DNA of 64,000 nucleotides, taken from the NCBI GenBank assembly GCA_034667725.1, contig JAXDQS010000005.1:127228-191227 (forward strand), read 5' to 3'. Source of the DNA: Thermoplasmata archaeon. Its GTDB lineage: Archaea; Thermoplasmatota; E2; JACPAO01; JAHFTW01. Both the position numbers and the translations under genes were made by a program. Numbering within the stretch: position 1 is the first letter of the stretch; each line of letters starts with the position of its first letter. Of the stretch, positions 7,336-40,865 are shown in pieces. The notes under the pieces were generated by a model. That model saw nothing but the letters and a program-made list of their open reading frames with translations. It did not search any database and had not been told where the DNA came from.

Positions 7336-7776
7336 ATGACGGCAGGCAAACCCCAGGTCGTCGTCGCGGCGCAGCACGGCCACGGCGAGGACTCCCACCT
7401 GTCCGCGCGGCCCATCATGAGCCTCAAGGAGCAGCGCGACGCGCTCAAGGACGGCCGCGTCGTCGGCTTCCACTGCGCCAACTGCAAGGTCGACCGCTTC
7501 AGCCCGATGCTGCGCTGCCCCAAGTGCGCCGGCACCAACATCCAGCAACGCGAGTTCAGCAAGACCGGCGCCGTCGTCAGCTACACCATCCAAAGCGTCG
7601 CCTCGGAGCAGTTCCTCAACGAGACGCCGTTCGCGTTCGCCGTGATCCAACTGGACGACGGGCCGAAAGTGTCCGGGTGGATTCCGTGGATCGCGAAGCC
7701 CAAGGACTTGTCGATTGGGCAGAAGGTCGAGTACGTCCCGAGCTACAAGCCGGGGATGATGTTCGAGAAACGTTGA
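7336..7776 (+). CDS. DUF35-family Zn-ribbon/OB-fold protein (thiolase partner)
   Basis: CANC...CPKC, 'GAVVSYT', 'P(F)AFAVIQLDDG'; lies directly downstream of the thiolase. Confidence 0.9.
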   Translation: MTAGKPQVVVAAQHGHGEDSHLSARPIMSLKEQRDALKDGRVVGFHCANCKVDRFSPMLRCPKCAGTNIQQREFSKTGAVVSYTIQSVASEQFLNETPFAFAVIQLDDGPKVSGWIPWIAKPKDLSIGQKVEYVPSYKPGMMFEKR

Positions 7777-7794
7777 GCATGGCATCGCTGAAGC

Positions 7795-8245
7795 GGACGA
7801 CCCACACATCCTCGGATTCTGCGGGGTCTGTGGAATTGATGGCTGCCCCTCCATCACCCAAAGCGTCTGTGGAATCTGTGCCCGCCGGAATGCGGCGACC
7901 CACACAGATTCCGCAGATAGCTGCTCAAGCTTCCTCAAACCCTCTGTGGAATCTTTGCCCGGCCGAATTGCGCCGACCAACACAGATTCCCCAGATCGTC
8001 GCCCAAGCTTGGTGGGCCGCAAAGCAACTCCTCAGACCTCTATGGAAATCTGGGCCCGCCAGGTTACGACCCACACAGATTCCACAGACCGTTGCTCAAG
8101 CTTGATGGGCCGCAACGCAATTCCCCAGATTCTCTGTGGAATCTGTGTCCGCCCGGAATGCGACGACCCACACAGATTCCACAGACCGTTGCTCAAGCTT
8201 GATGGGCCGCAACGCAATTCCTCAGATTCTCGGTTGAATCGGTTG
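7795..8245. repeat. Repeat family A, array 1: about 4-5 tandem units of 77-96 bp, each with an inverted pair TCTGTGGAATCTGTG ... CACAGATTCCACAGA
   Basis: Forward cores at 7866, 7943, 8039 and 8133; reverse cores at 7903, 7981, 8074 and 8171; ~59 bp identical between ~8066 and ~8163. Confidence 0.9.
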
Positions 8246-8665
8246 TCGTGCCGCATGGCCCGCGAAGGCCTCCTCGGTGTGCCGTGCTGGCTCGGCGTGA
8301 CGGCCCACGACCCGGATGAACTGCAATTCCGATGAGCCGAAGTTCAGCAGGAGCCCGACGGGCAGCCGAGTCACCGCGAGGTAGTTCGCAAGCTGTCCCA
8401 CCTCGCGCCGCCCGACCGTGTCCAGCGCCTTCAGCTCCACGAGGATGGACTTGTGGCAAATGTAGTCGGCCCGGAACGATTTCGTAAGTTGGACGCCGTC
8501 GTACCACACGGTCAGCGGCACTTCGGACTCCGCGGGGATGCCGCGGCGCTTGAACTCCACGCCCAAGGCTTCCTGGTACACGGACTCCAAGTAGCCTGGC
8601 CGGAGTTCCCGATGGACCTTCATCGCGGCGCCGATGATGGCGAACGTCCGCGCGTCGTTGCGCAT
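8222..8665 (-). CDS. GxxExxY protein (PD-(D/E)XK nuclease-like, PDDEXK_3)
   Basis: IIGAAMKVHRELRPGYLESVYQEAL...E...RAD...VELKA...Q..NYL...GLLLNFG; the stop codon lies inside repeat array 1. Confidence 0.92.
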   Translation of the reverse strand: MRNDARTFAIIGAAMKVHRELRPGYLESVYQEALGVEFKRRGIPAESEVPLTVWYDGVQLTKSFRADYICHKSILVELKALDTVGRREVGQLANYLAVTRLPVGLLLNFGSSELQFIRVVGRHAEPARHTEEAFAGHAARQPIQPRI

Positions 8666-8743
8666 GGGGGGCGGCACGGGCGGATTACAGTTTCACAGTT
8701 GGCTGAACTCAAGTGAAACTACTCATCTGGGAATCCCTCCCAG

Positions 8744-11700
8744 TCAAGCCGCTTCCACCGCCGCCGGCCGCACCGTCCGCGTCGGCTTGACCTCGGCGCG
8801 CACGACGGCGCCGTCGATGTCCCACGCGGGGCCTTTGGTGGCCGGGCCGAACGACAAGTGGCGGGCGCGCACTTCGGCCTTGAGCACGTGGAGGAACTGC
8901 TGGAGCTGGGCTTCCTGGTCGGGGCCGCAGCCGATTTCGACGTCGACCTCCTCGGCGATGGGCAGGTCCAGTTCCTTGCGGACCTCCTGAATGCGGCGGA
9001 CGACCTCGCGCACGAGGGCTTCGGCCAGGAGCTTCTCGTCGCGCAGGACGTGGAGCGCCAGGATGACGTCGCCGACCTTGGTGGTGGCCCAGCCGGGGCG
9101 GTCGCGCTCCTCGAACAGCACGTGCTCGGCGCCGAGGGCGTGGTCTTGGCCTTCGACGTTGACGCCGACGGTCTTGCCGGCGGCGAGCTGGCGGTGGGCG
9201 GCGTCGCCGTCGAGGCCTTCGATGGCGTCCGCGATGGGGCCGCCGAGCTTCTTGAACGCCTTGCCCAAAGCGGCGCGGTTGGGCTTGGCGACGAACTGCT
9301 TGAAGGCGGCGGCGTCGGGGGCGGTCTCGATGGCCTTGACGTTGATCTCTTCTTGGAGGATGGCGCCGAACCGGCCGGCCTCCTGGCCCACCAGGACGGC
9401 GCGGCCGAGCGGGTGGCGGGTCGGGATGTTGACCTTGCTGCGGAGGGCGCGGGCGGCCTCGGCGAGGCTCCGGACGGTGGCCATCTCGCGCTCAAGGGCC
9501 TCCTCGCGGGCGCCGGGCTCGGGCAGGAGGGCGAGATGGACGCTGGCGGGGTCTTGGTCGGTGCGCAGCAGGGGCCACATCGACTCGACCATGAAGGGCG
9601 CGAACGGCGCCACCATGCGGCTGATCGTGTGCAGCGCGGTCCAGAGGGCGCTGTGGGCGGAGCGCTTGTCCTTGGAGTCGCGTTCGGCCCAGAAGCGGTC
9701 GCGGCTGCGGCGCAGCCACCAGTTGGAGAGGTCGTCGATGACGAAGGCCTCGATGGCGCGGGTGGCCTTGTGCAGGTGGTAGCGGTCGGCCTCGAAGCGC
9801 GCCTCGGTAAGGGTGGCGTTGAGGCGGGACAGCAGCCAGCGGTCCAGGTCGCTCCACTCCTTGGGCGGCACGGCTTGGCTGGGCGTCCAGTGGTCGAGGC
9901 CGGCGTACTGGTGGTGGAACAGGAAGGTGTTCCAGAGGGTGCTGAAGAACTTCCCGAAGGTCTCGCGGACGGCCTCCTCGTAGAACCGCTTGTCCTGCCA
10001 GGGCGCCGTGGCCGACAGGAGGTACCAGCGGGTGGCGTCGGCGCCTTGGGTGGCAAAGACGTGGTCGGGCGGGACGTAGTTCTTCTTCGACTTCGACATC
10101 TTGGTGCCGTCTTCCGCCAGGATGAGGCCGTTGACCACGCAGTTGCGGTAGGCAGGTCCCTGGAACAGGCCGGCGGCCTTGGCGTCGGGGGCTTGGCCGA
10201 GGGCGGTGGCAGACGCCAGGAGCGAGTAGAACCAGCCGCGGGTCTGGTCGAGACCTTCCGAGATGAAGTCGATTGGCCACTGGGCCTGGAGGTTCGGGTT
10301 CTGGAGGCTGGTGGCCTTCCATTGCGCGAACTGGGCGGCGCCGGAGTCGTACCAGACGTCGATGACGTAGGGCTCGCGCTCGGCCTTGCCGCCGCACTTG
10401 GCGCACGCAATCGGCTGGTCGACGTAGGGGCGGTGCAGCTCGGGGGCCTTGATGCCGGCCTTCTCCAGTTCGGCGCGGCTGCCGAGGCAGCGCTGGGCGC
10501 CGCAGGAGGTGCAGGTCCAGATTGGCAGCGGCGTGCCCCAGAAGCGGCTGCGGCTGAACGCCCAGTCCTTGACGTTGCGCAGCCAGTCGCCCATGCGGCC
10601 CTCCTGGATAGTCTCGGGCACCCAGTTGATCTGCTGGTTGTTCGCCAAGAGTTGGCCGCGCAGCTGGCTCATGCGGATGTACCAGGAGTCCATCGCGTAG
10701 TACAGGAGCGGGTGGCCGGTGCGCCAGCAGTGCGGGTAGCTGTGCTCGTAGGTCTCGGAGCGGTAGAGGGAATCCGTCGCCTTGAGATGCTGGAGGATGC
10801 GTGCCTCGGTGTCCGCCGCCTTGACGGGGAGCCCGCCGACGCCGCCGGGGACGTGGCCGAGGAAGCTGCCGTCGAGGCCGACGGTGTGCTGCGCGGGCAG
10901 GTTCTCGCGCATCCCGAGCTGGTAGTCGTCCTCGCCGTACATCACGGCGGTGTGGACAACACCGGTGCCGTCCTCGGTGGTGACGAACTCGGCGGGCACG
11001 ACGACGAACGCCTTCTTGCCGGTGGGGTCGACGGCGCCGGGAAACAGCGGGCGGTACTTCCTGCCCACCAGGTCGCGGCCCTTCATCTCCGCGATCACCT
11101 GCGACTCGTTCCGAAGCGCCTTCTTCTGGAGCGCCTTGGCGACGATCAGCACCTCGCCCTCCTTGGCGTCGGCCTTGTCGGAGGCCTTGAGCACGCGGAC
11201 CTTGACGTACTCGATGTCGGGCCCGACGGCGAGCGCGACGTTGCCGGGCAGCGTCCACGGCGTCGTGGTCCAGGAGAGGACGCGGGCGCCGTCCTTGTCG
11301 CCCTCGAGGTGGAACTTGACGAAGACCGCGGTGTCCTTGACGTCCTTGTAGCCGAGCGCCACCTCGTGGCTGGAGTAGCTGGTGCCGGTCTGCGGGCAGT
11401 AGGGGACGACCTTGTGGGCCTTGTGCAGCAGGCCCTGCTCCCACAGGCGCTGAAGGCTCCACCACACGGACTCGATGTAGCCGTCGTCCATCGTGACGTA
11501 GGGGTCGGCGTAGTCGAGCCAGAAGCCGACGCGCTCCGACATGGCCTCCCAGTCCTTCTTGTAGCGGAACACGGAGTCGCGGCACTTCTGGTTGAACCGG
11601 TCCATGCCGTACTCCAGGATCTGGCCGACATGCTCGATGCCCAGCTCCTTCTGCACCTCGATCTCGACCGGCAGGCCATGGCAGTCCCAGCCGGCCTTGC

Positions 11701-11962
11701 GCGGCACCCACTTGCCCTGCATCGCGTGGTAGCGGCAAACGGCGTCCTTCAGGGTGCGCGTCAGCACGTGGCCCGGGTGGGGCAGGCCGTTCGCGGTCGG
11801 CGGGCCCTCCAGGAACACGAACTTGCGGGCAGGGTCCTGCGCCGCGTTGGCCTTGCCCTGCTCGACCTGGCGCTGGAAGGTGCCCTCGCGGGCCCACTTC
11901 TCGAGGACGCGCCGCTCCATCACGTCGGGCACGTAGCGCTTGGGGACGGCGGGGCGTTCCAT
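8744..11962 (-). CDS. ileS: Isoleucine--tRNA ligase (IleRS2, archaeal/eukaryote-like)
   Basis: EGPPTANGLPHPGH, GWDCHGLP, WTTTPWTLP, GTGVVH, EGLDQTRGWFY, KMSKS. Confidence 0.97.
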   Translation of the reverse strand: MERPAVPKRYVPDVMERRVLEKWAREGTFQRQVEQGKANAAQDPARKFVFLEGPPTANGLPHPGHVLTRTLKDAVCRYHAMQGKWVPRKAGWDCHGLPVEIEVQKELGIEHVGQILEYGMDRFNQKCRDSVFRYKKDWEAMSERVGFWLDYADPYVTMDDGYIESVWWSLQRLWEQGLLHKAHKVVPYCPQTGTSYSSHEVALGYKDVKDTAVFVKFHLEGDKDGARVLSWTTTPWTLPGNVALAVGPDIEYVKVRVLKASDKADAKEGEVLIVAKALQKKALRNESQVIAEMKGRDLVGRKYRPLFPGAVDPTGKKAFVVVPAEFVTTEDGTGVVHTAVMYGEDDYQLGMRENLPAQHTVGLDGSFLGHVPGGVGGLPVKAADTEARILQHLKATDSLYRSETYEHSYPHCWRTGHPLLYYAMDSWYIRMSQLRGQLLANNQQINWVPETIQEGRMGDWLRNVKDWAFSRSRFWGTPLPIWTCTSCGAQRCLGSRAELEKAGIKAPELHRPYVDQPIACAKCGGKAEREPYVIDVWYDSGAAQFAQWKATSLQNPNLQAQWPIDFISEGLDQTRGWFYSLLASATALGQAPDAKAAGLFQGPAYRNCVVNGLILAEDGTKMSKSKKNYVPPDHVFATQGADATRWYLLSATAPWQDKRFYEEAVRETFGKFFSTLWNTFLFHHQYAGLDHWTPSQAVPPKEWSDLDRWLLSRLNATLTEARFEADRYHLHKATRAIEAFVIDDLSNWWLRRSRDRFWAERDSKDKRSAHSALWTALHTISRMVAPFAPFMVESMWPLLRTDQDPASVHLALLPEPGAREEALEREMATVRSLAEAARALRSKVNIPTRHPLGRAVLVGQEAGRFGAILQEEINVKAIETAPDAAAFKQFVAKPNRAALGKAFKKLGGPIADAIEGLDGDAAHRQLAAGKTVGVNVEGQDHALGAEHVLFEERDRPGWATTKVGDVILALHVLRDEKLLAEALVREVVRRIQEVRKELDLPIAEEVDVEIGCGPDQEAQLQQFLHVLKAEVRARHLSFGPATKGPAWDIDGAVVRAEVKPTRTVRPAAVEAA

Positions 11963-28319: not shown

Positions 28320-28592
28320 AACTCAGAAGATTCCCACAGAGGCCTGTGGAGTCTGTGTCTAGTTGCGGTCGCGACGAGCACTGATTCTCTCAGATTCGGA
28401 AGATTCCCACAGAACTCCGTGGAATCTGTGTCTAGTTGCGGCCGCCCACGAGCACTGATTTACCCAGATTCGGAAGATTCCCTCAAAACTCTGTGGAATC
28501 TGTGTCCAGTCGGCGGCTCCGCGACGAGCACTGATTTGCACAGATTCGGAAGATTCCCACAGAACTCTGTGGAATCTGTGTCCAGTCGGCGG
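28320..28592. repeat. Repeat family A, array 2: four tandem 73-76 bp units
   Basis: GAAGATTCCC units start at 28326, 28399, 28473 and 28549; core GATTCCCACAGA-AC-TCTGTGGAATCTGTG. Confidence 0.93.
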
Positions 28593-28651
28593 CGTGTGGT
28601 TCCACCGACCCCGTCCACGCCCTGAAGAATCCTGCCCGGCTCTTGCTGCCC

Positions 28652-28816
28652 ATGCACCCGCTCCACCTTGCCCTGCACGCCGACGGCGCCTGGACCGCCA
28701 CCTGCGGCGACGACGAGCTGGACGGCATGGCCTTCGGCGAGACGCCCGCCATCCGCGCCACCATGACCCTCTGGGGACCCGCCACGCCGGGCGTCCTGCG
28801 CGCCGTCGCCGCCTGA
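28652..28816 (+). CDS. Small hypothetical protein (54 aa, below ORF-track cutoff)
   Basis: MHPLHLALHADGAWTATCGDDELDGMAFGETPAIRATMTLWGPATPGVLRAVAA; almost all codons end in G/C. Confidence 0.5.
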   Translation: MHPLHLALHADGAWTATCGDDELDGMAFGETPAIRATMTLWGPATPGVLRAVAA

Positions 28817-29007
28817 GCTTCCTGTGCAACCCGCGGCGATCTGCCGCCGCCCCCGCCCCCATCAGCCGGGCTTCCGGCACGGAACCCCCAGCGGCCGGTG
28901 GAGGCAAGGCGCGGAACGCGGGTGCTCCACTGGAAACCCTACCGTTGTTTCCGACAAGCCGGGGTCTCTGCGATGGGGTTTTGTGGGGACCTGTGGTTCG
29001 CGCCCCG

Positions 29008-29325
29008 ATGAGCCCGTTCCCCATCGCCCCACCTCGTAGCGACGACCGCGACGCCTGGATGTCCTTGCAGGAGAACCCGCACATCGACGGCGACACTGCC
29101 CACGACCTCATGCGCCTGGGCATCCGCCGCGGCGAGGACCTCACGGACAAGGACCCGCTGGACCTCTACCGCCGCCTGTCCGCGCTCGACCAGGAGTCGC
29201 ACGACGTCCGCAAGGCCCGCCTCTACGCCATGGCGATCGAGGCCGCCCGCCGCGAGCCCGACCTCGGCCCCGCCGCCGGCACGCGCCGGCCGGGCGGCTT
29301 CCTCGCGCGCTGGCGCCACAAGTAG
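29008..29325 (+). CDS. Helix-hairpin-helix protein (Cdd1/TfoX C-terminal-like)
   Basis: 'LQENPHIDGDTAHDLMRLGIRRGEDLTDKDPLDLYRRL...HD'. Confidence 0.6.
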   Translation: MSPFPIAPPRSDDRDAWMSLQENPHIDGDTAHDLMRLGIRRGEDLTDKDPLDLYRRLSALDQESHDVRKARLYAMAIEAARREPDLGPAAGTRRPGGFLARWRHK

Positions 29326-29327
29326 GC

Positions 29328-30500
29328 CTACAGGACGCGGACCTGCGCCGCCGCCCGCTTCGCCTTGGCGCGCGCCTCGGAGATTGTCGCCCCACTGGCA
29401 ACAATCACGCCCATGCGGCGGTTGCGGTGCGCCGCGGGCTTGCCGAACAGGCGGATGGCGGTGCCGGGCTCGGCCAGCGCCGCCTCGACGCCTTCGAACG
29501 CCGGCGGCTCCGACGACGCCGTGGCGAGGATGACGGCGCTGGCGGTCGGGCCGAGGTGGCCGACGTCGGGGATGGGCAGGCCGGTGATGGCGCGGACGTG
29601 CAGCGCGAACTCCGACAGGGTCTGGCTGCCGAGGGTCACGAGGCCGGTGTCGTGCGGGCGCGGGCTGACCTCGGAGAACCAGACCTCGTCGCCGGCGACG
29701 AACAGCTCGACGCCGAACAGGCCGCGGCCGCCGAGCGCCTCGGTGACGCTGCGTCCAATGGCTTGGCTGCGCTGGAGGGCGACGGGGGACATGGCCATGG
29801 GCTGCCAGGACTCGCGGTAGTCGCCGTCGACCTGGACATGGCCGATGGGCGGGCAGAAGGTGGTGCCGCCGGCGTGGCGGATGGTGAGGAGCGTGATCTC
29901 GTACTCGAACGGGATGAACGACTCGACGATGACGCGGCCGGTGTTGACGCGCCCCTGCATCGCGTAGGCCCACGCCTTGTCCACGTCCGCGTGCGCGCGC
30001 ACGACGCTCTGGCCCTTGCCGCTGCTGCTCATGGTCGGCTTGACGACGCACGGGAACCCGATGGCGGCGACGGCGGCGCGGAACTCCTCCGGGCTGCTTG
30101 CGAATTGATAGCGGCTCGTGGGCAGGCCCAAGGTCTCGGCGGCCAGGCGGCGGATGCCTTCGCGGTCCATCGTGAGGCGGGCGGCGCGCGCGGTCGGCAC
30201 CACGTGGAACCCCTCGGCCTCCAGCTTCTCCAGCTCGGCGGTGGCGATGGCCTCGATCTCCGGCACGATCCAGTCCGGGTCCTCCTGCTCGATGACGGCG
30301 CGCAACGCCTTCGAATCGGTCATGTCCACGACGTGGCTGCGGTGCGCCACCTGCATCGCCGGCGCGTTGGGGTAACGGTCCACGGCCACCGTCTCGATCC
30401 CCAGCCGCTGCGCCTCCAGCACGACCTCCTTCCCAAGCTCGCCGGAGCCCAAGAGCAGCATCTTGCGGGCGTTGCTGGCAAGCGGGGTGCCCCAGGCCAC
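29328..30500 (-). CDS. purT: Formate-dependent phosphoribosylglycinamide formyltransferase
   Basis: GTPL...[43 protein letters not shown]. Confidence 0.96.
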
Positions 30501-30577
30501 GGCCGCCGTGCGCGAAGCCACCGATATAGACGTTTCCACGCCGGTTCATCAAGCTCCCGCCCCCCAAACGGGGGCCC

Positions 30578-31702
30578 ATGCGCCTTGAACAGCGCGTGTG
30601 GGACGCAGCCGAAGGCTGGCATGGCGAAGCAGCCCTCCCGGAGGCCCAGCTCGTCCTGGTCTTCGGCGGCCGCGACGGCCTCGCCCCCGCCTCGCTCGAC
30701 CGCTTGGCGCACGACTACCCTGGCGCCATCCTGGCCGGCTGCTCGACCGCCGGCGAGATCGCGGGCACCCACGTCCACGACGACCACGCCGTCGCCACCG
30801 CCGTCCGCTTTGCCGGCACCCCCGTCCGGGCGGTCCACATCGACCTCCAGCAAGGCGAGGCCTCGGAGGCCGCCGGCGCCCGCCTGGCCGCCCAGCTCCC
30901 CGCCGCCGGCCTGGTCCACGTCCTCGTGTTCTCCGACGGCCAGCACGTCAACGGCAGCGCCCTCGTGGCCGGGATGCAGCAGCGTCTCCCCGCCGGCGTG
31001 CAGCTCACCGGCGGCCTGGCCGGCGACGGCCCGCGCTTCCAGCACACCCTCACGGTGGCGGCCGGCGAGGCGCGCGAGGACCGCATCGTCGCCGTCGGCT
31101 TCTACGGCCCCCGCCTCCGGGTCGGCTTCGGCTCGCTCGGCGGCTGGGACCCCTTCGGCCCGCAGCGCCGCGTCACCCGCGCCGTCGGCAACGTCCTGTA
31201 CGAACTCGACGGCCAGCCCGCCCTCGCCCTCTACAAGCGCTACCTCGGCGACCAGAGCGCCGGGCTGCCCGCCACCGGCCTGCTGTTCCCGTTGAGCCTG
31301 CGGCGCGACGACGGCGGCGAAGTGGTGCGCACCATCCTCGCCGTCAACGAGGCCGACCAGTCGATGACGTTCGCCGGCGACATCCCGGAAGGCCTCATGG
31401 TGCGCCTCATGAAGGCCAACTTCGACCGCCTGGTGGACGGCGCCCACGGCGCCGCCGAGACCAGCCAGGCCGCCCTGGGCTCCGACCACGCCGAGCTGGC
31501 GCTCCTGATCAGCTGCGTCGGCCGCAAGCTGGTGCTCAAGCAGCGCGTCGAGGAGGAGCTGGAGGCGGTGCAGCAGGTCGTCGGCCACGGCGCGGCGCTT
31601 GCCGGCTTCTACTCCTACGGCGAAATCTGCCCCGCGGCCCCGGCGGCCAGCTGCGAGCTGCACAACCAGACCATGACCATCACCACCTTCGCCGAGGCAT
31701 GA
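30578..31702 (+). CDS. FIST N/FIST C sensory domain protein
   Basis: GCSTAGEI, GGLAGDG, GGWDPFG, ISCVGR, GFYSYGE, LHNQTMT. Confidence 0.93.
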   Translation: MRLEQRVWDAAEGWHGEAALPEAQLVLVFGGRDGLAPASLDRLAHDYPGAILAGCSTAGEIAGTHVHDDHAVATAVRFAGTPVRAVHIDLQQGEASEAAGARLAAQLPAAGLVHVLVFSDGQHVNGSALVAGMQQRLPAGVQLTGGLAGDGPRFQHTLTVAAGEAREDRIVAVGFYGPRLRVGFGSLGGWDPFGPQRRVTRAVGNVLYELDGQPALALYKRYLGDQSAGLPATGLLFPLSLRRDDGGEVVRTILAVNEADQSMTFAGDIPEGLMVRLMKANFDRLVDGAHGAAETSQAALGSDHAELALLISCVGRKLVLKQRVEEELEAVQQVVGHGAALAGFYSYGEICPAAPAASCELHNQTMTITTFAEA

Positions 31703-33385
31703 ATGCACAAGCTCCTGGAACGGCAGCTCCGCAGGGCCTTCGGCGGCCCCGACGGCGTGCCGCCAGGGCTCCAGCCGCTCCTGGACGCCATCGACGCCAC
31801 CTACCGGGGCAACGACGAGGACCGCGCCCTGCTGGAGCGCTCGATGGAGCTGACCTCCCAGGAGCTCCTGGCGCTCAACGACGAGCTGCGCGGCCAGCGT
31901 GACCAGCAGCGCGTCATCTTCGACTCGGTGCCCGCCCTCATCTTCTACAAGGACACCGAGAACCGCATCCTGCGCCTCAACGCGCCGGCAGCCGCCGTCT
32001 TCGGCGCCAAGGTCGAGGACATCGAAGGCAAGTCCACCTACGACCTCATGCCGCACGACGCCGCCAAGCGGCTGCACGACGACGACCTGGAAGTCGTCCG
32101 CAGCGCCCAGCCCAAGCTCGGCATCCTCGAGTCCCACCCCGACGGCGCCGGCAACCTCCGCTGGGCCCGCACCGACAAGGTGCCCTACCGCGACGCCGCC
32201 GGCAAGGTCGCCGGCGTCCTCGTGCTGTCGCAGGACATCACCGAACGCCGCCGCGCCGAGGCAGCGCTCCGGGAGTCCGAGCGCCGCTACCGCCTCATCG
32301 TCGAGACCGCCACCGAAGGCATCTGGAGCGTCGACACCGAAGGCCGCACCACCTACGCCAACGCCGTCCTGGCGCAGATGCTCGCCGTCACCCCCGAGGA
32401 GATTCAGGGCCGCAACGTCCTCGACTTCATCGGCCCGGACGACCGCGCCGCCGCCGAGAGCCGGCTTGCCCGCCTGTTCGCCGGCGGCAGCGCCCGCATG
32501 GACCTCCGGTTCCGCCGCGGCGACGGCGCCGTCCTGTGGACCCAGGCCTCCGGCTCCGCCATCCGCGACGGCGACGGCAAGGTCGTGGGCGCGCTCGGGA
32601 TGCTCACCGACATCACCAAGCGCCGCGAGGCCGAGGAGGAGCTGCGCGCCGCCTACACCCGGCTCCAGCAGGTCGACCAGTCGCGCATCCACTTCCTCAA
32701 CACCGCCGCCCACGAGCTGGGCACCCCGCTGACGCCCTTGGTCCTGCAGATGCGCGTCCTCAAAGGGATGCTCGACGCCGCGCCGCCGGAGACGCGCCGC
32801 AGCCTCGCCGTCGTGGAGCGCAGCGTGCAGCGGCTCCAGTCGCTCGTGCAGGACCTGCTGGACGCCGCCCGCCTCGAGTCGGGCCAGCTCCGCATGAACC
32901 TGCGCGACCTGGACGCCACCCTGCTGGCGCACCAGGCCGCCGAGTCGTTCGCCCACGTCGCCCGCCAGGCGCGCGTCACGCTCGACGTGCAGGCCAAGGG
33001 CCGGGTGGCGGTGCGCGCGGACCCGGCACGGCTCGGGCAAGTGCTCGACAACCTGGTCGGCAACGCCCTCAAGTTCACGCCGGCCGGCGGCCGCGTCGTC
33101 GTCCGCGCCGAGGCCGACGGCGACGCCGCGGTGGTGTCGGTGGCGGACACCGGCATCGGCATCCCGGCGGACGCCATCCCCAAGCTGTTCCAGCCGTTCT
33201 CGCAGGTCCACGACCCCATGAAGGTCAACGCCAGCGGCACCGGCCTCGGCCTCTACATCAGCAAGGCCATCGTCGAGGCGCTGGGCGGCAAGGTCGAGGC
33301 CACGAGCGCCGGGGCGGGGCGCGGCACGACGGTGACGCTGCGGCTGCCGCTGGTGCAGGTGGAGCGCGAGCATCTGGTGGCCTAG
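31703..33385 (+). CDS. PAS-PAS sensor histidine kinase
   Basis: Two PAS/PAC domains (DITER, DITKR), H-box AHELGTPL, NALKF, DTGIGI, GTGLGL. Confidence 0.94.
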   Translation: MHKLLERQLRRAFGGPDGVPPGLQPLLDAIDATYRGNDEDRALLERSMELTSQELLALNDELRGQRDQQRVIFDSVPALIFYKDTENRILRLNAPAAAVFGAKVEDIEGKSTYDLMPHDAAKRLHDDDLEVVRSAQPKLGILESHPDGAGNLRWARTDKVPYRDAAGKVAGVLVLSQDITERRRAEAALRESERRYRLIVETATEGIWSVDTEGRTTYANAVLAQMLAVTPEEIQGRNVLDFIGPDDRAAAESRLARLFAGGSARMDLRFRRGDGAVLWTQASGSAIRDGDGKVVGALGMLTDITKRREAEEELRAAYTRLQQVDQSRIHFLNTAAHELGTPLTPLVLQMRVLKGMLDAAPPETRRSLAVVERSVQRLQSLVQDLLDAARLESGQLRMNLRDLDATLLAHQAAESFAHVARQARVTLDVQAKGRVAVRADPARLGQVLDNLVGNALKFTPAGGRVVVRAEADGDAAVVSVADTGIGIPADAIPKLFQPFSQVHDPMKVNASGTGLGLYISKAIVEALGGKVEATSAGAGRGTTVTLRLPLVQVEREHLVA

Positions 33386-33575
33386 CCCGAGGGTTGGTGG
33401 CGCCAACCACCACCCTTAACCGCCCGCGCGCTCACGCAGCCTCAAGTCAGAACGAGCAGCGTTCATGGCCGCAGGCGTGCGTCGCCCAACCCCCAACGGG
33501 GTCCGCCGCCTGCTTTGTGTCCCGCTTGGGACGGGTCCGGGCGACGATGCATCTCCGCCCAGACCCAGTGAAACC

Positions 33576-34880
33576 ATGCAGTCCAACCCTGCGGCCCCGG
33601 CCGCCCCCACGTTCAGCCAGTTCCCCCTCAGCGCCGGCACCCTCGACGCCATCGCCGCCATGGGCTACGAGAACCCCTCCCCCATCCAGCTGGATGCCAT
33701 CCCGCACCTGCTGGCCGGCCGCGACCTTCTCGGCCAGGCCCGCACGGGCACCGGCAAGACCGCCGCCTTCGGCATCCCGCTGGTCGAGAAATGCCGCACC
33801 CTGAAGAACGCCGGCGTCGCGGCGCTCATCCTGGTCCCCACCCGCGAGCTCTGCCTCCAGGTGGCGCAGGAGCTCTCCGAGATCGCCAAGGCCTCCGGCC
33901 TGCGCATCGTGACCGTGTACGGCGGCGTCGGCATGGGCAACCAGACCGCGGAGCTGACCCGGCACGGCGGCACCATCCTCCTGGTCGCCACCCCCGGCCG
34001 CCTCCTCGACCACGTCCAGCAGGGCACCGCCCGCCTCGAGAAGGTCAAGTTCCTGATCCTGGACGAGGCCGACCGGATGCTCGACATGGGCTTCCTGCCC
34101 GACATGGAGCGCGTGCTGCGCGCCGTCCCCAAGGTCCGCCAGACGATGCTGTTCTCGGCCACCGTGCCCGAGCCCATCCGCCGCCTGACCTCCAAGTTCC
34201 TCACCGACCCCGTCACCGTCAAGGTCGAGGCCGGCCCCACCGCGACGCCGCTGTGCGAGCAGTTCAAGGTCCACCTCGAGAAGACCCAGAAGACCCGTGC
34301 CCTGCTGGCGCTGCTTGCGAAGGAGAAGCCGGAGCGCACCATCGTCTTCACCCGCACCAAGCACCTCGCCAAGCGCCTGGCCCCCCAGCTCTCCAAAGCT
34401 GGCCACAACGCCGTCGCCCTCCAGGGCAACATGAGCCAGAACCAGCGCGAACGCTCGATGCAGGCGTTCCGCGACGGCGAGGCCACCCTGCTGGTCGCCA
34501 CCGACGTCGCCAGCCGCGGCATCGACGTCCCCGAGGTCAGCCACGTCGTCAACTACGACCTGCCCGACGAGCCCGAGGCCTACGTCCACCGCATCGGCCG
34601 CACCGGCCGCATGGGCCGCACCGGCCGCAGCTTCACCTTCGTCCAGAGCGACGAGCACCGGGACCTGAAGAACATCGAGCGCATCTCGGGAACCCAGATG
34701 GCGCAGTTCGACGTCGGCGAGCTCCCGCCCGAGCCGCCGCAGGTCGTCCCCGAGCGCCGCGAGCGGCTCCCCGGCCCGTCCGGCGGCTACGGCCGCGGAC
34801 AAGGCCGCGGGCAGGGCAGGGGCCGCGGCTCCGGCCCGGGCCACCACGCCAAGAAGGCGCCGCAAGGCCGCCGCTGGTAA
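33576..34880 (+). CDS. DEAD-box RNA helicase
   Basis: Q motif, [35 protein letters not shown]; RG-rich tail. Confidence 0.96.
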
Positions 34881-34896
34881 ACCCACCCATCGCCTT

Positions 34897-35040
34897 GGGG
34901 GCCGCCGCGCGCCTCGGGCGCGCAGGACCGAGCACGCCCGCCTGCGCGAGCGCCAGCGAGCGCACGGGCCGAGGGAGCGGCCCCCTCGTCGGCCGCGCGC
35001 AGCGCCCCCAGGCGGACACGCGAGTGGAACGAGCGTGTCC
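34897..35040. repeat. Repeat family B, copy 1 (structured GC-rich element)
   Basis: About 95 bp closely match the reverse complement of ~54963-55058; internal stems GGGGGCCGC/GCGGCCCCC and GCGCAGG/CCTGCGC; terminal hairpin. Confidence 0.8.
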
Positions 35041-35085
35041 GTTCACGACAGAGGCTATAACGCACCCCCGTTGTGGCAAGCCGCC

Positions 35086-35760
35086 ATGACGGATCGCGCC
35101 CACATGGACAGGCCTGCGGCGGCCATCGCCGTCCTGTCCGGTGTCCTCTTGATCGCTGCCAGTCTGCCGTTCGCCATCCTGGCGCTGCCGCAGAAGCCGA
35201 TCGAGTACAACGTGTTCTGGACGGAGGAGGAGGCGGGCCGCGCCCCGTTGCAGGCGACCGGCGACAGCCAGACCAAGTCCGTCACGCTGCACGTCGCCGG
35301 CCACCTCGCCAACGTCACGGTCTCCATCGCGGCCCAGGCGTGCCAGGACGGGTTCGAGCCGGACGCGCCCTATGGCCAGAAGCCGGTCCGCGTCACGTGG
35401 CGGCTGCTGCAGGACGGCGCCAAGGTCCACGAGGAGTCCGCCTTCACCTGCGCCGACGTGGCCGCCGGCCGCGAGCGCACCTTCACCATCGGCAACGGCA
35501 CCCACCCCGACCTCGGCTCTCTCAAGGCGCTCAACCGCACCGAGGCCGAGCGCGTCTTCGGCGCCAAGACCGACGACACCCTCCGGGACGTCACCTACAC
35601 CCTGGAGGCCACCTGGGCCCGCGGGGCGGCCAGCCCCACGCTGCCGCCGCTGGGCAGCCTGCCCGGCGTCACGCCCGCCACCACCTTCAGCCTCACCCTG
35701 AACCTCGCCGCCTCCAGCTGGGACGCGCGCATCGAGGAGAAGCCGGAGGTGGGCAAGTGA
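35086..35760 (+). CDS. Membrane-anchored hypothetical protein
   Basis: N-terminal TM; TATAA about 26 nt upstream; stop overlaps the permease start. Confidence 0.7.
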   Translation: MTDRAHMDRPAAAIAVLSGVLLIAASLPFAILALPQKPIEYNVFWTEEEAGRAPLQATGDSQTKSVTLHVAGHLANVTVSIAAQACQDGFEPDAPYGQKPVRVTWRLLQDGAKVHEESAFTCADVAAGRERTFTIGNGTHPDLGSLKALNRTEAERVFGAKTDDTLRDVTYTLEATWARGAASPTLPPLGSLPGVTPATTFSLTLNLAASSWDARIEEKPEVGK

Positions 35761-37433
35761 GCTTCCTGCGCCGCGGCATCGCCCGCATGGCCTACCGCAA
35801 GAACGTCGACCGCCTGCTGGAGGAGGCCCACAGCAAGCAGGGCCTCGCGAAGACCCTGGCCGCGAAGGACCTCATCGTCCTGGGTGTCGCCGGCATCATC
35901 GGCGCCGGCATCTTCGTGCTGATCGGCGAGGGCATCGAGAAGGCCGGCGTCGGCGTCATCCCGGCGTTCATCGTCGCGGCCGCCATCTGCGCCGTGGCCG
36001 GCTACGCCTACGCCGAGCTGGCCTCCGCCATCCCGGCCTCGGGCTCGGCCTACGCCTACATCTACACCGCCATGGGCGAGCTGCCCGGCTGGATGGTCGC
36101 CTGGGCGCTCATCCTGGAGTACGCCGTCGGCGCCATCGCGGTCGCCGTCGGCTGGCGCAACAACCTCTTGGCGCTCGTCAACCAGTTCAAGGACTCGGAC
36201 CCAGCGACCGACATCTTCGCGAACCAGTCCGGCTACTGGTGGACGCACAGCCCCTTCGAGTCCGTCACCTTGGACGACGGCACCGTGCTGCAGGGCATCG
36301 TCAACATCCCCAGCGTCATCATCGTGCTGCTGTGCACCCTGCTCTTGATCCGCGGCACCAAGGAGTCGGCCCGCTTCACCTTCGTCCTGGTCGTCATCAA
36401 GGTCGCGATCCTGGCGCTGGCCATCGTGGGCGGCTTCCTGTTCTTCGACGCCGCCAACTTCAGCGACCCGCTGCCCCACTACGAGATGGACGACGGAACG
36501 CTCTACGACGCCCGCGGCTGGCTCCCCGCCATCCAGTCGGTGTTCGCCGCCGCCGCCATCATGTTCTTCGCCTACATCGGGTTCGACTCGGTCTCGACCA
36601 CCGCCGAGGAGACCAAGAACCCGAAGCGCGACCTGCCGAAGGGCATCATCGGCAGCCTGCTCATCACGACGGCGCTCTACATCCTGGCCGCCGCGGCGCT
36701 CTCCTCCAGCAGCAACTGGACCAACTTCGCCGGCGACTCGGTGGCCGCCACCAACGCCCGCGGCGAGCCGTTCGGCTACGTGTTCGAGCAGAACGGGTTC
36801 CTGACCGGCAGCAACGTCTTCGGCGGCGCGGACGAGTTCGCCTACGGCGCCCTCATCATCCGCATCGGCGCCCTCATCGGCACCACCTCGGTGCTGCTGG
36901 TGCTGATCCTGGGCGGCGTCCGCGTGTTCTTCAACATGAGCCGCGACGGCCTGCTGCCCGGCTGGATGAGCCGCGTCTCCGCCCGCGGCGCCCCCGCCGC
37001 GACCACCCTGCTCTACGGCGCCTTCACGCTCTGCTTCGCCGCCTTGCTGGACCTCGGCGCCGCCGTCAACCTGGTGAACATCGGCACCCTGTTCGCGTTC
37101 TTCATGGTCATCCTGGCCGTGTGGCGCTTCCGCCGCAGCCGCCCCGACGTGGAGCGGCCGTTCCGGATGCCGCTGTGGTCGATCGACGACCGCCAAGGCC
37201 GCCCCATCGTCGCGTTCCTGCCGCTGCTGGGGATGCTGGGCGTCGCCGCCCTCATCGTGAGCCTCGACGGCTTCACGCTGCTGGCGAGCCTGGTCTGGGC
37301 CGGCATCGGCCTCGTGGTCTACGGCCTCTACGGCGTCCGGCACAGCCGCGAGGCCGGCGAGCGGCTGGCCGAGGCGCCGGTGGCCGCCACGGCCCGGGCC
37401 CGGCGCCGCAAGGCCGCCGAGCCGGAAGAATGA
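35757..37433 (+). CDS. Amino acid permease (APC family, cationic amino acid transporter-like)
   Basis: GIIGAGIF, YAELAS..P.SGSAY, FFAYIGFD..ST.AEE.KNP, RDGLLP. Confidence 0.93.
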   Translation: MSFLRRGIARMAYRKNVDRLLEEAHSKQGLAKTLAAKDLIVLGVAGIIGAGIFVLIGEGIEKAGVGVIPAFIVAAAICAVAGYAYAELASAIPASGSAYAYIYTAMGELPGWMVAWALILEYAVGAIAVAVGWRNNLLALVNQFKDSDPATDIFANQSGYWWTHSPFESVTLDDGTVLQGIVNIPSVIIVLLCTLLLIRGTKESARFTFVLVVIKVAILALAIVGGFLFFDAANFSDPLPHYEMDDGTLYDARGWLPAIQSVFAAAAIMFFAYIGFDSVSTTAEETKNPKRDLPKGIIGSLLITTALYILAAAALSSSSNWTNFAGDSVAATNARGEPFGYVFEQNGFLTGSNVFGGADEFAYGALIIRIGALIGTTSVLLVLILGGVRVFFNMSRDGLLPGWMSRVSARGAPAATTLLYGAFTLCFAALLDLGAAVNLVNIGTLFAFFMVILAVWRFRRSRPDVERPFRMPLWSIDDRQGRPIVAFLPLLGMLGVAALIVSLDGFTLLASLVWAGIGLVVYGLYGVRHSREAGERLAEAPVAATARARRRKAAEPEE

Positions 37434-37465
37434 CCTGAAGTCCTCCGCGGGGTCCCCCTCCGCCG

Positions 37466-39742
37466 ATGGCGGAGCTGCTGTGGGTGCTGGCCGGGCTGGC
37501 CGCCCTGCTGGCCGCCACCGGCCTCCTGTGCCAGCGGCTGCGCCTGCCGCCCGCGCTCGGCTACCTCGTGGTCGGGATCGCGCTGCCGGCGGCGCTGCCC
37601 GGGCTGGGCGCCCTCGTCCAAGTGGACCTGCTGCGCGACGCCTCCCACGTGGCCGTCCTGGTCCTGCTCTACTTCATCGGCATGGAGCTGGACGTCCGCA
37701 CGCTGCGCCGCATCCTGGCCGAGACCCGCGTCGTGTCGGTGTTCGACCTCCTGGTTCCCGCCCTCGTGGTCGCGTCGCTCGCGCGCCTCTGGGGCTGGAC
37801 GCTGCTCCAGTCCATCGTGCTGGGCCTCAGCCTCGGCCTCAGCTCCACCATCTTCGGCGACCGCCTGTCCGCCGGCTCGCGCTTCCCGCCCGCGGCCCGC
37901 CACCGCATCTTCGGCGTGCTCCTCGCGGAGGACATCGTGGCCGGCGGCATCCTGGCCGTGCTGGCCGTGCTGGCGGGCGGGGTCGCCAACGGCGGCTGGA
38001 TCGCGCCGCTCCAGACCGTCGGCGTGCTCCTGGTCGGCATGGCGGTCCTCGCCGCCGTCGCGCTCCTGTTGGTGCCGCGCCTCCTGGACCGCATCGCCAC
38101 CACCCACATGCCGGAGCTGGTCGTGGTCGGCGCCCTCGCCATGCTGCTGGTGTTCGCGGCCGCCGGCGACTGGGTCGGCTCCGCCGAGCTGGGTGCCTTC
38201 CTCGCCGGCATGGCCGCCGCCGAGGCCGGCTCCCGCTTCGTCGTCCGCAACGCCCTGTCCGGCCTGCGCCACATCGCGCTCGCGGTGTTCTTCTTCGCCG
38301 CCGGCGTCGTCGTGGACCCCCGCCTCGTGCTGGAGCAAGGCCCGTTCGTCCTCTTGTGCATCCTCGCCGTCGCCGCCGCCAAGCTCGCCGTCCACGTGCC
38401 CGGCGGGCTTGCCGCCGGCCTCGGCCTCGCGGACGCCACCCGCGTCGGCGCGGCGCTGGCCACCGTCGGCGAGTTCGGCCTCATCCTGGTCGCCGCCGCC
38501 CAGGCCGGCGGGCTCGCGCACGACGCCCTCGGCGCCACCGTCGCCGGCACCATCGTCGGCCTGCTGCTGCTGGCGCCCGTGCTGATGCGCGCCGCCAACG
38601 TGCCCGCCCGCCTCGTCCAGCGGCTGCCGGCGCGCCTGCGCACCAGCCTGGAGGGCGGCGTCCAGTCGATGCGGCGGCTGCGCCGCAAGGGGACGCACGG
38701 CGCCGCCCGCCCCGCGGCCGGCGAGGGCTCGGTCGCGCGCGCCATCGCCACCGTCCTGCTGCTGGCGTTCCTGGGGGCCGCCGCCGCGTTCCTGCACCAG
38801 GAGGTCCTGGCCCGCTTCCCCGGCGTCGACGCCCTCTGGGCCGCGGTCGCGACCTACGGCGTCGCCCTCGCGCTCGCCACCCCCCTGCTGGTGCGCGCCC
38901 ACGCCCGCTACCGCAGCTTCCTCCAGGCGTTCTTCCAGGTGCGCGGCGACACCGCCGTCGTGTCCGCGACCGCCCGCTTCGGGATGCGCCTCGTCGACGC
39001 CCTGCTGCTGCTCACCGCCGCCCTGATCGCCGTCCTGGTGGCGCTCCTGATGTCCGCCTCGTGGGAGGTCGTGGCCGCCACCGCCGCCGTCGCGGTCGCC
39101 ATCGCCGCCTTCGCCGGCCGCCAGATGGCCCGCATGACCGGCGCATTGGAGACCAGCCTGGCGCGCGTGCTGGGCGCCGACGAGCAAGCCCAAGCCGTCC
39201 TGCTTGGCGAATCGCTTGCCCAATACGGCTGGGGCGTCGAGGCCGCCGCCGTCGCCATCGGCCCCCACTCCCGCTTCGTCGGCAAGAGCCTCGCCGACAC
39301 CCGCCTCGAAGCCTCCACCGGCGTCACCGTCGCCGTCCTCAAGCGCCGCGGCCACGAGTCCGTCAACCCCGACGGCACCGAGAAGCTGCGCGAGGCCGAC
39401 ACCTTGGTGCTCGTGGGCGAGCCGCAGCAGATCCGCCGCGCCGAGGCGCTTTTGGACGAAGGCGAAGGCATCCTGCGCCTCGCCGCCGAGACCCGCGCCG
39501 CCGTCGTGACCGAGATCACCGTCGAGACCCCGTTTCTGGGCCCCCGCCCGCACCTGGAGCCCGCCTCCGGCACCCGGATCCTCGGCTACGTCCCGACCGG
39601 CCAGCCGTCGCCGCGGCCCTGGCACCCCGGCCTGGTGCCGCAGCCCGGCGACCGCCTCATCGTCCTCGGCAGCCCGCTCCAGGTCGAGCGGCTGCGGGCG
39701 GCGATGCGCGAGTCCGCACCGGACGCGCCATCGCAATCCTGA
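37466..39742 (+). CDS. Cation:proton antiporter (CPA2) with C-terminal RCK_C/TrkA-C domain(s)
   Basis: LSSTI, 'LLAEDI', LGAFLAG, GEFG; C-terminal 'VGKSLADTRL...NPDG..L...DTLVLVG'. Confidence 0.88.
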   Translation: MAELLWVLAGLAALLAATGLLCQRLRLPPALGYLVVGIALPAALPGLGALVQVDLLRDASHVAVLVLLYFIGMELDVRTLRRILAETRVVSVFDLLVPALVVASLARLWGWTLLQSIVLGLSLGLSSTIFGDRLSAGSRFPPAARHRIFGVLLAEDIVAGGILAVLAVLAGGVANGGWIAPLQTVGVLLVGMAVLAAVALLLVPRLLDRIATTHMPELVVVGALAMLLVFAAAGDWVGSAELGAFLAGMAAAEAGSRFVVRNALSGLRHIALAVFFFAAGVVVDPRLVLEQGPFVLLCILAVAAAKLAVHVPGGLAAGLGLADATRVGAALATVGEFGLILVAAAQAGGLAHDALGATVAGTIVGLLLLAPVLMRAANVPARLVQRLPARLRTSLEGGVQSMRRLRRKGTHGAARPAAGEGSVARAIATVLLLAFLGAAAAFLHQEVLARFPGVDALWAAVATYGVALALATPLLVRAHARYRSFLQAFFQVRGDTAVVSATARFGMRLVDALLLLTAALIAVLVALLMSASWEVVAATAAVAVAIAAFAGRQMARMTGALETSLARVLGADEQAQAVLLGESLAQYGWGVEAAAVAIGPHSRFVGKSLADTRLEASTGVTVAVLKRRGHESVNPDGTEKLREADTLVLVGEPQQIRRAEALLDEGEGILRLAAETRAAVVTEITVETPFLGPRPHLEPASGTRILGYVPTGQPSPRPWHPGLVPQPGDRLIVLGSPLQVERLRAAMRESAPDAPSQS

Positions 39743-39799
39743 TTATTTTGTGAAGAAATTTTAAGAAAAGTATTTTGAGGCTGCAGGCGTGGCTCTGGC

Positions 39800-40396
39800 A
39801 TGGACTGGAACATGGTCGCCGCGCTCTCGGGCGTGGGAGCGGCCGTCATCGCCGCCGTCGCCTTCTGGGCGGAAGGCCGGCGGTCGCGCCAAGCCCTGCA
39901 GGTCGAGCAACTGACCCGCTTGGAGGATCGGTTCCAATCCGATAGCATGTTACGCGCCCGCGCCGCCGCCGGCCGCACGCTGCGGACCACCGCCAACGAC
40001 CCTGACGAAGTGCTGCTCGGCTTCTTCGAGGTGGCAGGCATGCTGCTACGGAAGCGGGCCCTCGACCCCCAGATGGCCTGGCATTCGTTCGAGCACTGGG
40101 TCGAGCGCTATTGGCTCGCCAGCGAGCCGTTCATCCAGGCTTGCCGCACCCGCGACCCCAACCTGTGGAGCGAGTTCCAGCACCTGCGCGAAGTGCTCAT
40201 GAAAATCGAGCGCAAGCGGCTTGGTCGTCAGCCCGCGCCCATCACCCCCCAGGAGCTTGCCGAGTTCCTGGCTGAAGAAGAGGCGCTGATGGCCCCGGTC
40301 CTTTCCATGGGCGACGATCCTCCGCCCACGCGTGGAGGGCCCAACGTCGAGCTTGTCCTTCCCCGCCCGAGGTTCGCCGCCCCGAAGTCCTCATAA
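39800..40396 (+). CDS. Hypothetical membrane-anchored protein (DUF4760-like)
   Basis: N-terminal TM; 'LGFFEVAGML.RK..LD...W..F..L' pattern. Confidence 0.6.
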   Translation: MDWNMVAALSGVGAAVIAAVAFWAEGRRSRQALQVEQLTRLEDRFQSDSMLRARAAAGRTLRTTANDPDEVLLGFFEVAGMLLRKRALDPQMAWHSFEHWVERYWLASEPFIQACRTRDPNLWSEFQHLREVLMKIERKRLGRQPAPITPQELAEFLAEEEALMAPVLSMGDDPPPTRGGPNVELVLPRPRFAAPKSS

Positions 40397-40421
40397 CCCC
40401 CGCCCCTGTCGGAAGGCTGCA

Positions 40422-40673: not shown

Positions 40674-40711
40674 AGCGGGATCCCGCGCAGGAACCCTTCC
40701 GCCCCTGCCGT

Positions 40712-40862
40712 CGCGGGCCACGACTGGACACAGATTCCACAGAGTCTGTGGGAATCTTCCGAATCTGTGCAAATCAGTGCTCGTCGCGGAGCCGCCGACT
40801 GGACACAGATTCCACAGACCTTCTGTGGGAATCTTCCGAATCCGTGAAATCGGTGCCCGTCG
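40712..40862. repeat. Repeat family A, array 3: two units, inverted near-identical copy of array 2
   Basis: 40721-40818 is the reverse complement of ~28490-28588 apart from one 1-nt indel. Confidence 0.93.
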
Positions 40863-40865
40863 CAG

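Follow-up and report, generated by a model that had tools for sequence, protein, structure and literature searches.

The window, by which we mean the whole stretch of 64,000 nucleotides analysed here from the genome of a Thermoplasmata archaeon, carries a gene of the GxxExxY family (PF13366) that runs into an array of repeats, and two further arrays of the same repeat family lie elsewhere in the window. The genes and repeat features are the following.

7336-7776, plus strand: DUF35-type gene of a thiolase operon, left border of the junction
7795-8245: array 1, about five units of 78-97 bp, with the tail and stop codon of the GxxExxY ORF in the last unit
8213-8229, minus strand: proximal downstream arm of the GxxExxY gene, degenerate, homologous to the intact arm of loci L027 and L014
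8222-8677, minus strand: GxxExxY (PF13366) ORF of 151 amino acids, GTG start at 8677, alternative ATG at 8665
8230-8245, plus strand: variant core copy (TCGGTTGAA TCGGTTG), 9-bp period kept, hexamer altered
8312-8647, minus strand: PF13366 domain, residues 11-122 (profile search)
8678-8743: spacer of 66 nt from the IleRS stop codon to the GxxExxY start, upstream arm absent
8744-11962, minus strand: isoleucyl-tRNA synthetase (IleRS) gene, right border of the junction
28326-28586, plus strand: array 2, 3.5 units of 76 bp with a different linker, upstream of spt5
40708-40863, minus strand: array 3, downstream of secE, with 2.1 units of 77 bp in the opposite orientation to array 2

The only Pfam match of the window protein is PF13366 (E 1.6e-34, 119 bits against a cut-off of 22), and the same ORF matches the GxxExxY family TIGR04256 (E 2.4e-37, 128 bits against a cut-off of 35). 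The function of PF13366 has been given as 'Unknown' (PMC3424549). When the window protein is included among 27 aligned PF13366 sequences, G24, E27, Y30, E77 and K79 never vary, and D67 is kept in at least 90%. Four of these residues, E27, D67, E77 and K79, make up an E..D..ExK nuclease motif. The conserved active site argues for the window protein being a working nuclease, and the alignment indicates that the catalytic residues of PF13366 are under selection.

The AlphaFold model of the window protein (pLDDT 90) has the predicted core order alpha-beta-beta-beta-alpha-beta, and its secondary structure fits the PD-(D/E)XK fold. A search of the PDB at the sequence level gave no match. With Foldseek, the best match in the PDB was Cas4 SSO0001 (4ic1, E 1e-4); lambda exonuclease, RecE and the nuclease domains of AddAB/AdnAB ranked behind it. 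Judged by the model, PF13366 proteins are predicted to be small Cas4/RecB-like PD-(D/E)XK nucleases. The window protein and Cas4 have the PD-(D/E)XK core and the catalytic motif in common, whereas the window protein measures about 125 residues (the conserved domain ends at residue 122-124), has no Fe-S cluster cysteines and lies in no cas neighbourhood. Cas4 recognises short motifs in single-stranded overhangs. Neither PADLOC nor PHROGs returned a match for the window protein, so that a reading as a defence or phage gene is unsupported.

The first-pass annotation had described the GxxExxY ORF as ending inside a tandem array, and this is what we observe: the 27-amino-acid tail and the stop codon (8222-8224) lie within array 1. 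Tandem Repeats Finder resolved this array into a stretch with a period of 78 (7859-8010, 2.0 copies) and one with a period of 97 (7931-8240, 3.2 copies). At no more than two mismatches, the window contains 13 copies of the core 15-mer, compared to 0.03 expected; array 1 contributes seven of these, which alternate in orientation, and the others are found at 28343-28580 (four) and at 40729-40818 (two). Arrays 2 and 3 have no nuclease gene beside them, as had been described. Also in agreement with the earlier description, the three arrays are richer in AT than their surroundings (G+C 0.53-0.58 compared to 0.71 for the window), and the linkers of array 1 are unlike those of arrays 2 and 3 while the cores are kept. 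The inverted 15-mer cores held up in part: inverted copies are present, but the 15-mer is divisible and consists of two units of a motif with a 9-bp period, CACAGAnnn. Among inverted hexamer pairs in the genome, 155 have a period of 9, seven a period of 8 and one a period of 10.

Each unit of array 1 consists of an outward-facing pair of core copies that forms a hairpin with a 22-nt loop. Folded as single-stranded DNA, array 1 units reach z-scores of -6.4 and -4.6, and the units of arrays 2 and 3 fold much more weakly. No Rfam family was found in any of the arrays. A CRISPR array was ruled out, as the units recur between loci together with their linkers, and neither Rfam (arrays) nor PADLOC (protein) gave a match.

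Across the assembly of the organism (2.32 Mb in 26 contigs, 71% G+C, 90% estimated completeness), the core 15-mer has 91 exact copies and 130 copies at no more than one mismatch, which form 64 clusters. With intergenic regions defined as everything outside crude gene calls, which take up 78% of the genome, 117 of the 130 copies (90%) are intergenic, compared to an expectation of 22% (p about 1e-61); the suspected intergenic enrichment is thus present. More of the core clusters lie in convergent than in divergent gaps (24 compared to 14, with a background of 367 and 361). The cognate family of this genome is of the CACAGATTC type and comprises arrays 1-3 and at least 50 loci genome-wide. Two families of the same design, CACGGAT (28 loci) and CACCGAG (18 loci), have no cognate gene in this genome. 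The genome contains one PF13366 copy, which is intact. As the core family is present in about 4% of the intergenic regions, a gene would adjoin it on either side by chance in about 8% of cases. The adjacency in one genome is therefore weak evidence, and the case has to rest on other genomes.

PF13366 is present in all 12 other genomes of the genus, in 1-8 copies each, and 19 genomes that represent other genera of the family all lack it. At a typical locus of the genus, the gene is bracketed by inverted arms, each composed of two or three 9-bp units in tandem (29 flanks), and the upstream arm of the relatives is located 15-180 nt before the domain. The arm hexamer varies by gene lineage and includes CACAGA, CGCAGA, CACGAA, CACCGA, CGCGGA, CACTGA, CACGGA and others; in general, an arm unit measures 8-9 bp, within which a hexamer or heptamer with the pattern C-R-C-N-G-A is conserved. 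To compare these loci to other genes, we scored the best inverted repeat across each PF13366 gene and across 400 random control genes. The score exceeded the 99th percentile of the control at 23 of the 29 genus loci, with a median of 40 at these 29 loci compared to a mean of 20 and a maximum of 34 in the control; nine of 14 further loci were also above it. The flanking repeats that had been anticipated at GxxExxY loci are thus far more frequent there than at control genes.

The association extends beyond the genus. We took 20 PF13366 genes from 13 further genomes in the phylum (G+C 32-70%), and 16 to 17 of them exceeded the 99th percentile of shuffled sequences, with the same periodic hexamers. 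Every one of the 13 genus genomes contains generic three-unit arms, between 4 and 400 of them, compared to seven or fewer in 47 of 48 other relatives. In a sample of 301 genomes drawn evenly from the phylum, PF13366 was found in 25; it was present in 12 of the 12 genomes with at least nine generic arms, which represent at least six families, compared to 13 of the remaining 289. We had been led to expect that relatives lacking PF13366 would also lack the repeats, and this is the case with one exception, a genome of another genus (G019) with 66 generic arms in an incomplete and fragmented assembly, in which PF13366 was not found.

Bacteria were sampled through plasmid records. The 1.1-Mb plasmid of Gemmatirosa kalamazoonensis contains 58 generic arms compared to none in the control, and its three PF13366 genes are accompanied by complete mini-palindromes, on both sides of two genes and only downstream of the third. 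On a Sphingomonas replicon (S. parapaucimobilis), an armed PF13366 cassette lies between fabD and fabG. The motif at the Treponema PF13366 locus is inverted and shorter, and at the loci of Fusobacteria and Prevotella the repeats are direct, not inverted. Overall, the association recurs at more than 50 loci, in at least six archaeal families and in two bacterial phyla. Of the arm pairs that the pattern searches listed, only those around PF13366 genes are 400-500 nt apart, and PF13366 is the only gene found between arms.

If genes and repeats belong together, the type of the repeat should follow the lineage of the gene, as the first-pass annotation had proposed. The arm labels require 18 changes on the protein tree compared to 24.8 when shuffled, and none of 200 shuffles was as low; this agrees with the proposal, on a tree that is poorly resolved and on which part of the arm clustering reflects orthology. 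The CACGAA clade has a support of 97%. One arm type together with its gene is found at different loci in different species, and one locus can be occupied by different gene lineages in different species.

We furthermore compared the copy numbers of three arm types, P1 to P3, in the 13 genomes of the genus, which are not independent of each other. P1 (CACGAATT type) reaches 161 copies in G001, 91 in G009, 84 in G012, 41 in G008 and 35 in G010, with seven or fewer elsewhere, and a P1-armed gene is present in G001, G009, G012 and G008. P2 (CACCGATG type) reaches 133 copies in G008, 45 in G012, 18 in G003 and 16 in G005, with three or fewer elsewhere; all four of these genomes contain a P2-armed gene. 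P3 (CGCAGAT type) has 103, 95, 48, 36, 29 and 26 copies in its six high-copy genomes, four of which contain a P3-armed gene, as does one low-copy genome. When the three types are pooled, a gene with cognate arms is present in 12 of 15 high-copy cases compared to one of 24 low-copy cases. The exceptions are G005 and G010, from which the P3 gene is absent, and G010, from which the P1 gene is absent. A further genome, G002, has 167 core copies and a related gene that is frameshifted, with no intact gene of that arm type. The assemblies of G002 and G010 are incomplete and fragmented, whereas that of G005 is not. With a genus-specific profile, no further or degraded PF13366 copies were found in our genome (G000), in G002 or in G019.

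Gene-less elements, here called minis, are about 60-90 nt long and consist of AAC, two or three units, a spacer of 7-35 nt, the inverted units and GTT. In G003 and G002, gene-less elements of about 215 nt have both their outer and their inner arms in common with the gene-bearing L007/L029 element. As both sets of arms are kept, this is the relation expected of an element and its deletion derivative. By eye, no target-site duplication was seen at 10 P1 minis. The spacers of P1 minis are unrelated in sequence between copies and are thus unlike those of copies of a master element.

The sequence of the units provides a further indication of what is maintained. Across 13 CACGGAT minis of the genome, the unit heptamers are conserved, and unit positions 8-9 are complementary between the arms in 35 of 78 comparisons, with 39.8 expected. 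Since the heptamers are kept while positions 8-9 are at chance level, selection appears to act on the sequence of the unit and not on pairing. Hairpin pairing as the selected trait is thus unsupported for these minis. Conservation of the heptamers fits selection on a protein site, or concerted evolution, better than it fits hairpin copying.

The gene in the window departs from the typical state. The nearest relatives of its protein, L014 (in G007) and L027 (in G006), both have arms of the CACAGATT type, so the cognate family of the window gene is the family of the array 1 core. In most relatives the gene is flanked by inverted dispersed repeats on both sides, whereas the window gene has repeats on its 3' side only: the upstream arm is missing, with IleRS ending 66 nt before the start codon, and an alignment of the L012, L014 and L027 loci reveals that the proximal downstream arm has decayed. 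The view of the window gene as an autonomous element has to be given up on these grounds. Instead, it behaves like a fixed, RAYT-like gene and not like a mobile cassette.

The position of the locus is also particular to this lineage. In none of the 12 other genus genomes was the DUF35 gene found to adjoin IleRS, and in two genomes inspected no GxxExxY gene or arm follows IleRS. As the two neighbours lie apart elsewhere, the gene and array 1 are located at a lineage-specific junction. What follows the DUF35 gene varies between species: in G006 the convergent stop codons are 8 nt apart with nothing in between, and in G011, G012 and G009 the gap contains minis of three other types. The genes secE and spt5 are adjacent without a repeat in G006, G007 and G005; in our genome, the two are set apart by an inversion of 12 kb, which has the inverted arrays 2 and 3 on either side. 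Empty sites, which had been suggested as something to look for in relatives, thus exist at both places. The arrays are sites of recombination, as evidenced by the 12-kb inversion at arrays 2 and 3 and by the lineage-specific junction at array 1.

Regarding the assembly at this junction, the sequencing runs that contain the window stretch come only from the likely source, a soil metagenome, and no RNA run is listed. Contigs of the metagenome break inside array 1 at 8095 and 8192, with no joints or variants. As no listed contig spans the whole of array 1, the DUF35 side may have been mis-joined to the IleRS side. The junction of the gene with array 1 lies within a single contig, and the read depths across the region agree (13.2, 12.6 and 11.8).

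Taken together, the sequence comparisons suggest that the GxxExxY gene and the repeat family are very probably a cognate pair. How the two would act on each other is less certain. We propose that the PF13366 protein would bind the repeated units in a sequence-specific manner, probably with one protomer per unit, and would cut at or next to the arms, possibly in single-stranded or hairpin DNA by analogy to Cas4 and Ssn nucleases. Host repair or recombination would then copy the arm-bounded segments, with or without the gene, to new intergenic sites, and in this way gene-less repeats would be amplified in trans. PD-(D/E)XK enzymes break DNA by hydrolysis and have no joining activity, and thus any spread needs functions of the host. 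We estimate the probability that the protein recognises and cuts the units and thereby amplifies the gene-less repeats at roughly 0.4, and we would be equally reserved in regarding the region as a local instance of such a nuclease-plus-cognate-repeat system. There are observations that run against amplification, namely the orphan families, the lack of a target-site duplication at the 10 minis and the unrelated spacers of P1.

The proposed system resembles several known ones. REP and REPIN repeats are associated with the RAYT transposase, a Y1 HUH enzyme (PMC3116915, PMC3733652), and the first-pass annotation had drawn this analogy. It is appropriate for the logic of the pairing: the gene is usually present once and, in most relatives, has its repeat family on both sides as inverted copies; palindromic doublets and BIME-like arrays without the gene occupy intergenic regions by the tens to hundreds, often between convergent genes; the repeat type follows the gene lineage; and no target duplication is evident. 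However, the analogy does not extend to the enzyme or to the structure of the repeat. The PF13366 enzyme is of the PD-(D/E)XK type whereas RAYT is an HUH enzyme, and no Y1 HUH transposase (PF01797) was found in our genome, which is 90% complete. The arms of PF13366 consist of 2-3 tandem direct units of 8-9 bp with AAC...GTT ends, in contrast to the REP stem-loop of 20-40 nt tagged by GTAG/CGTC. Furthermore, the PF13366 gene is often multi-copy (1-8 per genome in the genus), and the system occurs in archaea as well as in bacteria. Since it has neither an HUH enzyme nor the structure of a REP, the system is not a member of REP/RAYT.

Among published systems, the Ssn family of GIY-YIG nucleases comes closest in its habit: the genes are flanked by cognate hairpin repeats that are cut in single-stranded DNA, with cleavage and a role in transformation shown experimentally (PMC11893778, 2025). 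In common with Ssn and its NTS/SRM repeats are a small single-domain nuclease gene with a cognate hairpin-forming repeat on both sides, hundreds of repeat copies per genome and a co-variation of repeat and protein across phyla. The GIY-YIG fold is unrelated to PF13366, however, and the repeat of Ssn consists of one hairpin of 28 nt and a tag upstream of it, whereas a PF13366 arm has multiple units; in addition, cleavage is experimental for Ssn, whereas for GxxExxY it is a prediction. Membership in Ssn/SRM is rejected because a GIY-YIG domain is absent and PF13366 is the sole Pfam match. The suggestion that the system is undescribed holds only in part, as the habit has been published for the Ssn nucleases, which have a different fold (PMC11893778).

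A third resemblance is to MITEs and to autonomous elements with multi-site ends, such as Mu and Tn7, whose inverted ends are composed of several sub-repeats that look like binding sites. Terminal inverted repeats are present in the PF13366 system as well, and so are short gene-less derivatives, including intermediates with inner and outer arms. In contrast to such elements, the PF13366 system lacks a recombinase of the DDE, serine or tyrosine type, inspection of the 10 P1 minis by eye revealed no target-site duplication, and the spacers of minis are often unrelated.

The resemblance to Ssn also leads to the first alternative to amplification in trans. GxxExxY may be a nuclease integrated into the host that spreads nothing: the repeats would be its sites, probably in single-stranded form, it would modulate recombination, DNA uptake or fork processing, and the repeats would arise or persist by other means, for example by slippage, gene conversion or recombination. 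The gene-between-repeats layout has a published precedent (PMC11893778), and the nearest folds, those of Cas4 and lambda exonuclease, belong to enzymes that work on single strands and on ends. The conserved units, together with mini spacers and positions 8-9 that are free to vary, are what maintained binding sites and concerted evolution would produce, and the gene of our genome is single-copy and armless. We nevertheless consider this explanation unlikely, as it gives no account of how tens to hundreds of copies reached new intergenic sites. It also leaves unexplained that the gene and its arms occur at different loci in different species and that gene-less derivatives have the inner and outer arms of gene-bearing elements.

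Another possibility is a homing-type selfish gene. Here, the palindromes would exist beforehand and spread by other means, and GxxExxY would cut the centre of a mini and be copied in between its arms. Archaeal PF13366 genes indeed occupy the exact place of the 7-35-nt spacer of a mini with identical orientation of the arms, different gene lineages occupy one locus in different species, and the gene occurs mainly where targets are many. Yet two of the three Gemmatirosa genes lie between two complete minis and not inside one, the arms provide only about 27 bp of homology for repair, and no other mobilising enzyme was found, including a Y1 transposase in our genome; homing is thus distinctly improbable to us. 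That the gene is a coincidental neighbour in a permissive intergenic region, or passive cargo of a palindromic element moved by the host, would agree with the chance adjacency of about 8% in our genome, with the site downstream of the DUF35 gene that draws other repeat types in other species and with orphan families that persist without a gene, but is highly improbable given the recurrence at more than 50 loci in at least six archaeal families and two bacterial phyla, the spacing of 400-500 nt found among the listed arm pairs solely around PF13366 genes and the apparent selection on the catalytic residues.

We thus favour the reading of a nuclease that recognises and cuts the units and thereby amplifies its repeats in trans. 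In its broadest form, PF13366 would be a third independent class of small nucleases with dispersed repeats of their own, after the HUH RAYTs and the GIY-YIG Ssn nucleases, that in archaea and bacteria reads a modular code of 8-9-bp units and drives the copying of arm-bounded segments; we regard this generalisation as somewhat doubtful.

PF13366/TIGR04256 is a very common prokaryotic family, and its pairing with a lineage-specific DNA motif turns it into a testable protein-DNA pair. The pairing gives PF13366 a candidate job, whereas it does not explain how the repeats spread. It also accounts for the main repeat families of an archaeal genus, which are found at rearrangement breakpoints and in the gaps at the 3' ends of genes. 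The theme of a nuclease with its own repeats, known from RAYT and Ssn, is extended to another fold and to archaea. To this theme, the window adds an archaeal genus with a matrix of repeat types by genome, the recurrence of the pairing in several archaeal families, a gene that is fixed, single-copy and armless, and breakpoints at the arrays. If PF13366 is indeed a third nuclease class, its many natural specificities could be mined as site-specific DNA cutters.

The segment of 12 kb between arrays 2 and 3, which both carry the core repeat of array 1 without a nuclease gene, is flanked by these arrays as mutually inverted copies (window 28320-40862). In the genomes G006, G004, G007 and G005 of the same genus, as well as in other genomes, secE directly adjoins spt5. 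Taken together, gene order and array orientation indicate that our genome has undergone an inversion, with arrays 2 and 3 as its breakpoints.

Array 1 lies at another junction, as the transition from the DUF35/thiolase operon to IleRS passes through it. When comparing window positions 7776-8744 to the other genomes of the genus, we found the operon beside IleRS in none of them (0 of 12). Since none of the listed contigs from the source metagenome spans the whole of array 1, this junction reflects a genuine rearrangement or, with lower probability, a mis-join.

Next to the DUF35 gene of relatives we observed minis, that is, gene-less palindromes of the arms (inverted blocks of two to three tandem 9-bp units) that flank PF13366 genes. 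At locus L036 (G012:C32), the DUF35 gene ends in 15 nt, among them a stop codon, that recur 16 nt downstream, and this duplicated gene end adjoins a CGCAGAT-type mini. Downstream of the DUF35 gene at L034 (G011:C111), two convergent genes are separated solely by a mini-palindrome of 66 nt, whose ends supply both stop codons (TGA...TCA).

Our own genome (G000) contains two additional mini-palindrome families with a 9-bp period, for neither of which a cognate PF13366 gene was found in the assembly:

G000:C1:146359-146415 and 27 further loci, minis with CACGGAT units
G000:C3:609534-609612 and 17 further loci, minis with CACCGAG units

In 3 of 13 CACGGAT minis of this genome, right-arm and left-arm variable triplets are complementary unit by unit in unmirrored left-to-right order, which indicates that the two arms are not simple inverted copies of one another.

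A PF13366 gene without arms also occurs at a locus where other species have armed genes, L014 and L055:

G002:C5:31430-31714, L023, PF13366 gene with a frameshift near its 5' end, no arms

Upstream of about 20 of 42 PF13366 genes we detected a near-palindromic box, optionally preceded by GG:

72-117 nt before the PF13366 domain (loci L002-L058), CCAAC-N(2-6)-TGG box

Its distance to the start is fairly constant while the upstream arm may lie on either side of it; the box may be a promoter or an operator. Separately, minis of the soil bacterium Gemmatirosa contain similar CCAA..TTGG centres, and this bacterium has arm hexamers in common with the archaeal loci.

Part of the window gene also occurs elsewhere, as a further soil metagenome, which belongs to a different study, contains a contig of 151 nt identical to window 8318-8468. 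The GxxExxY domain (window 8312-8647) has a G+C content of 63.7%, compared to 71% for the genome, and this lower value suggests a horizontal origin.
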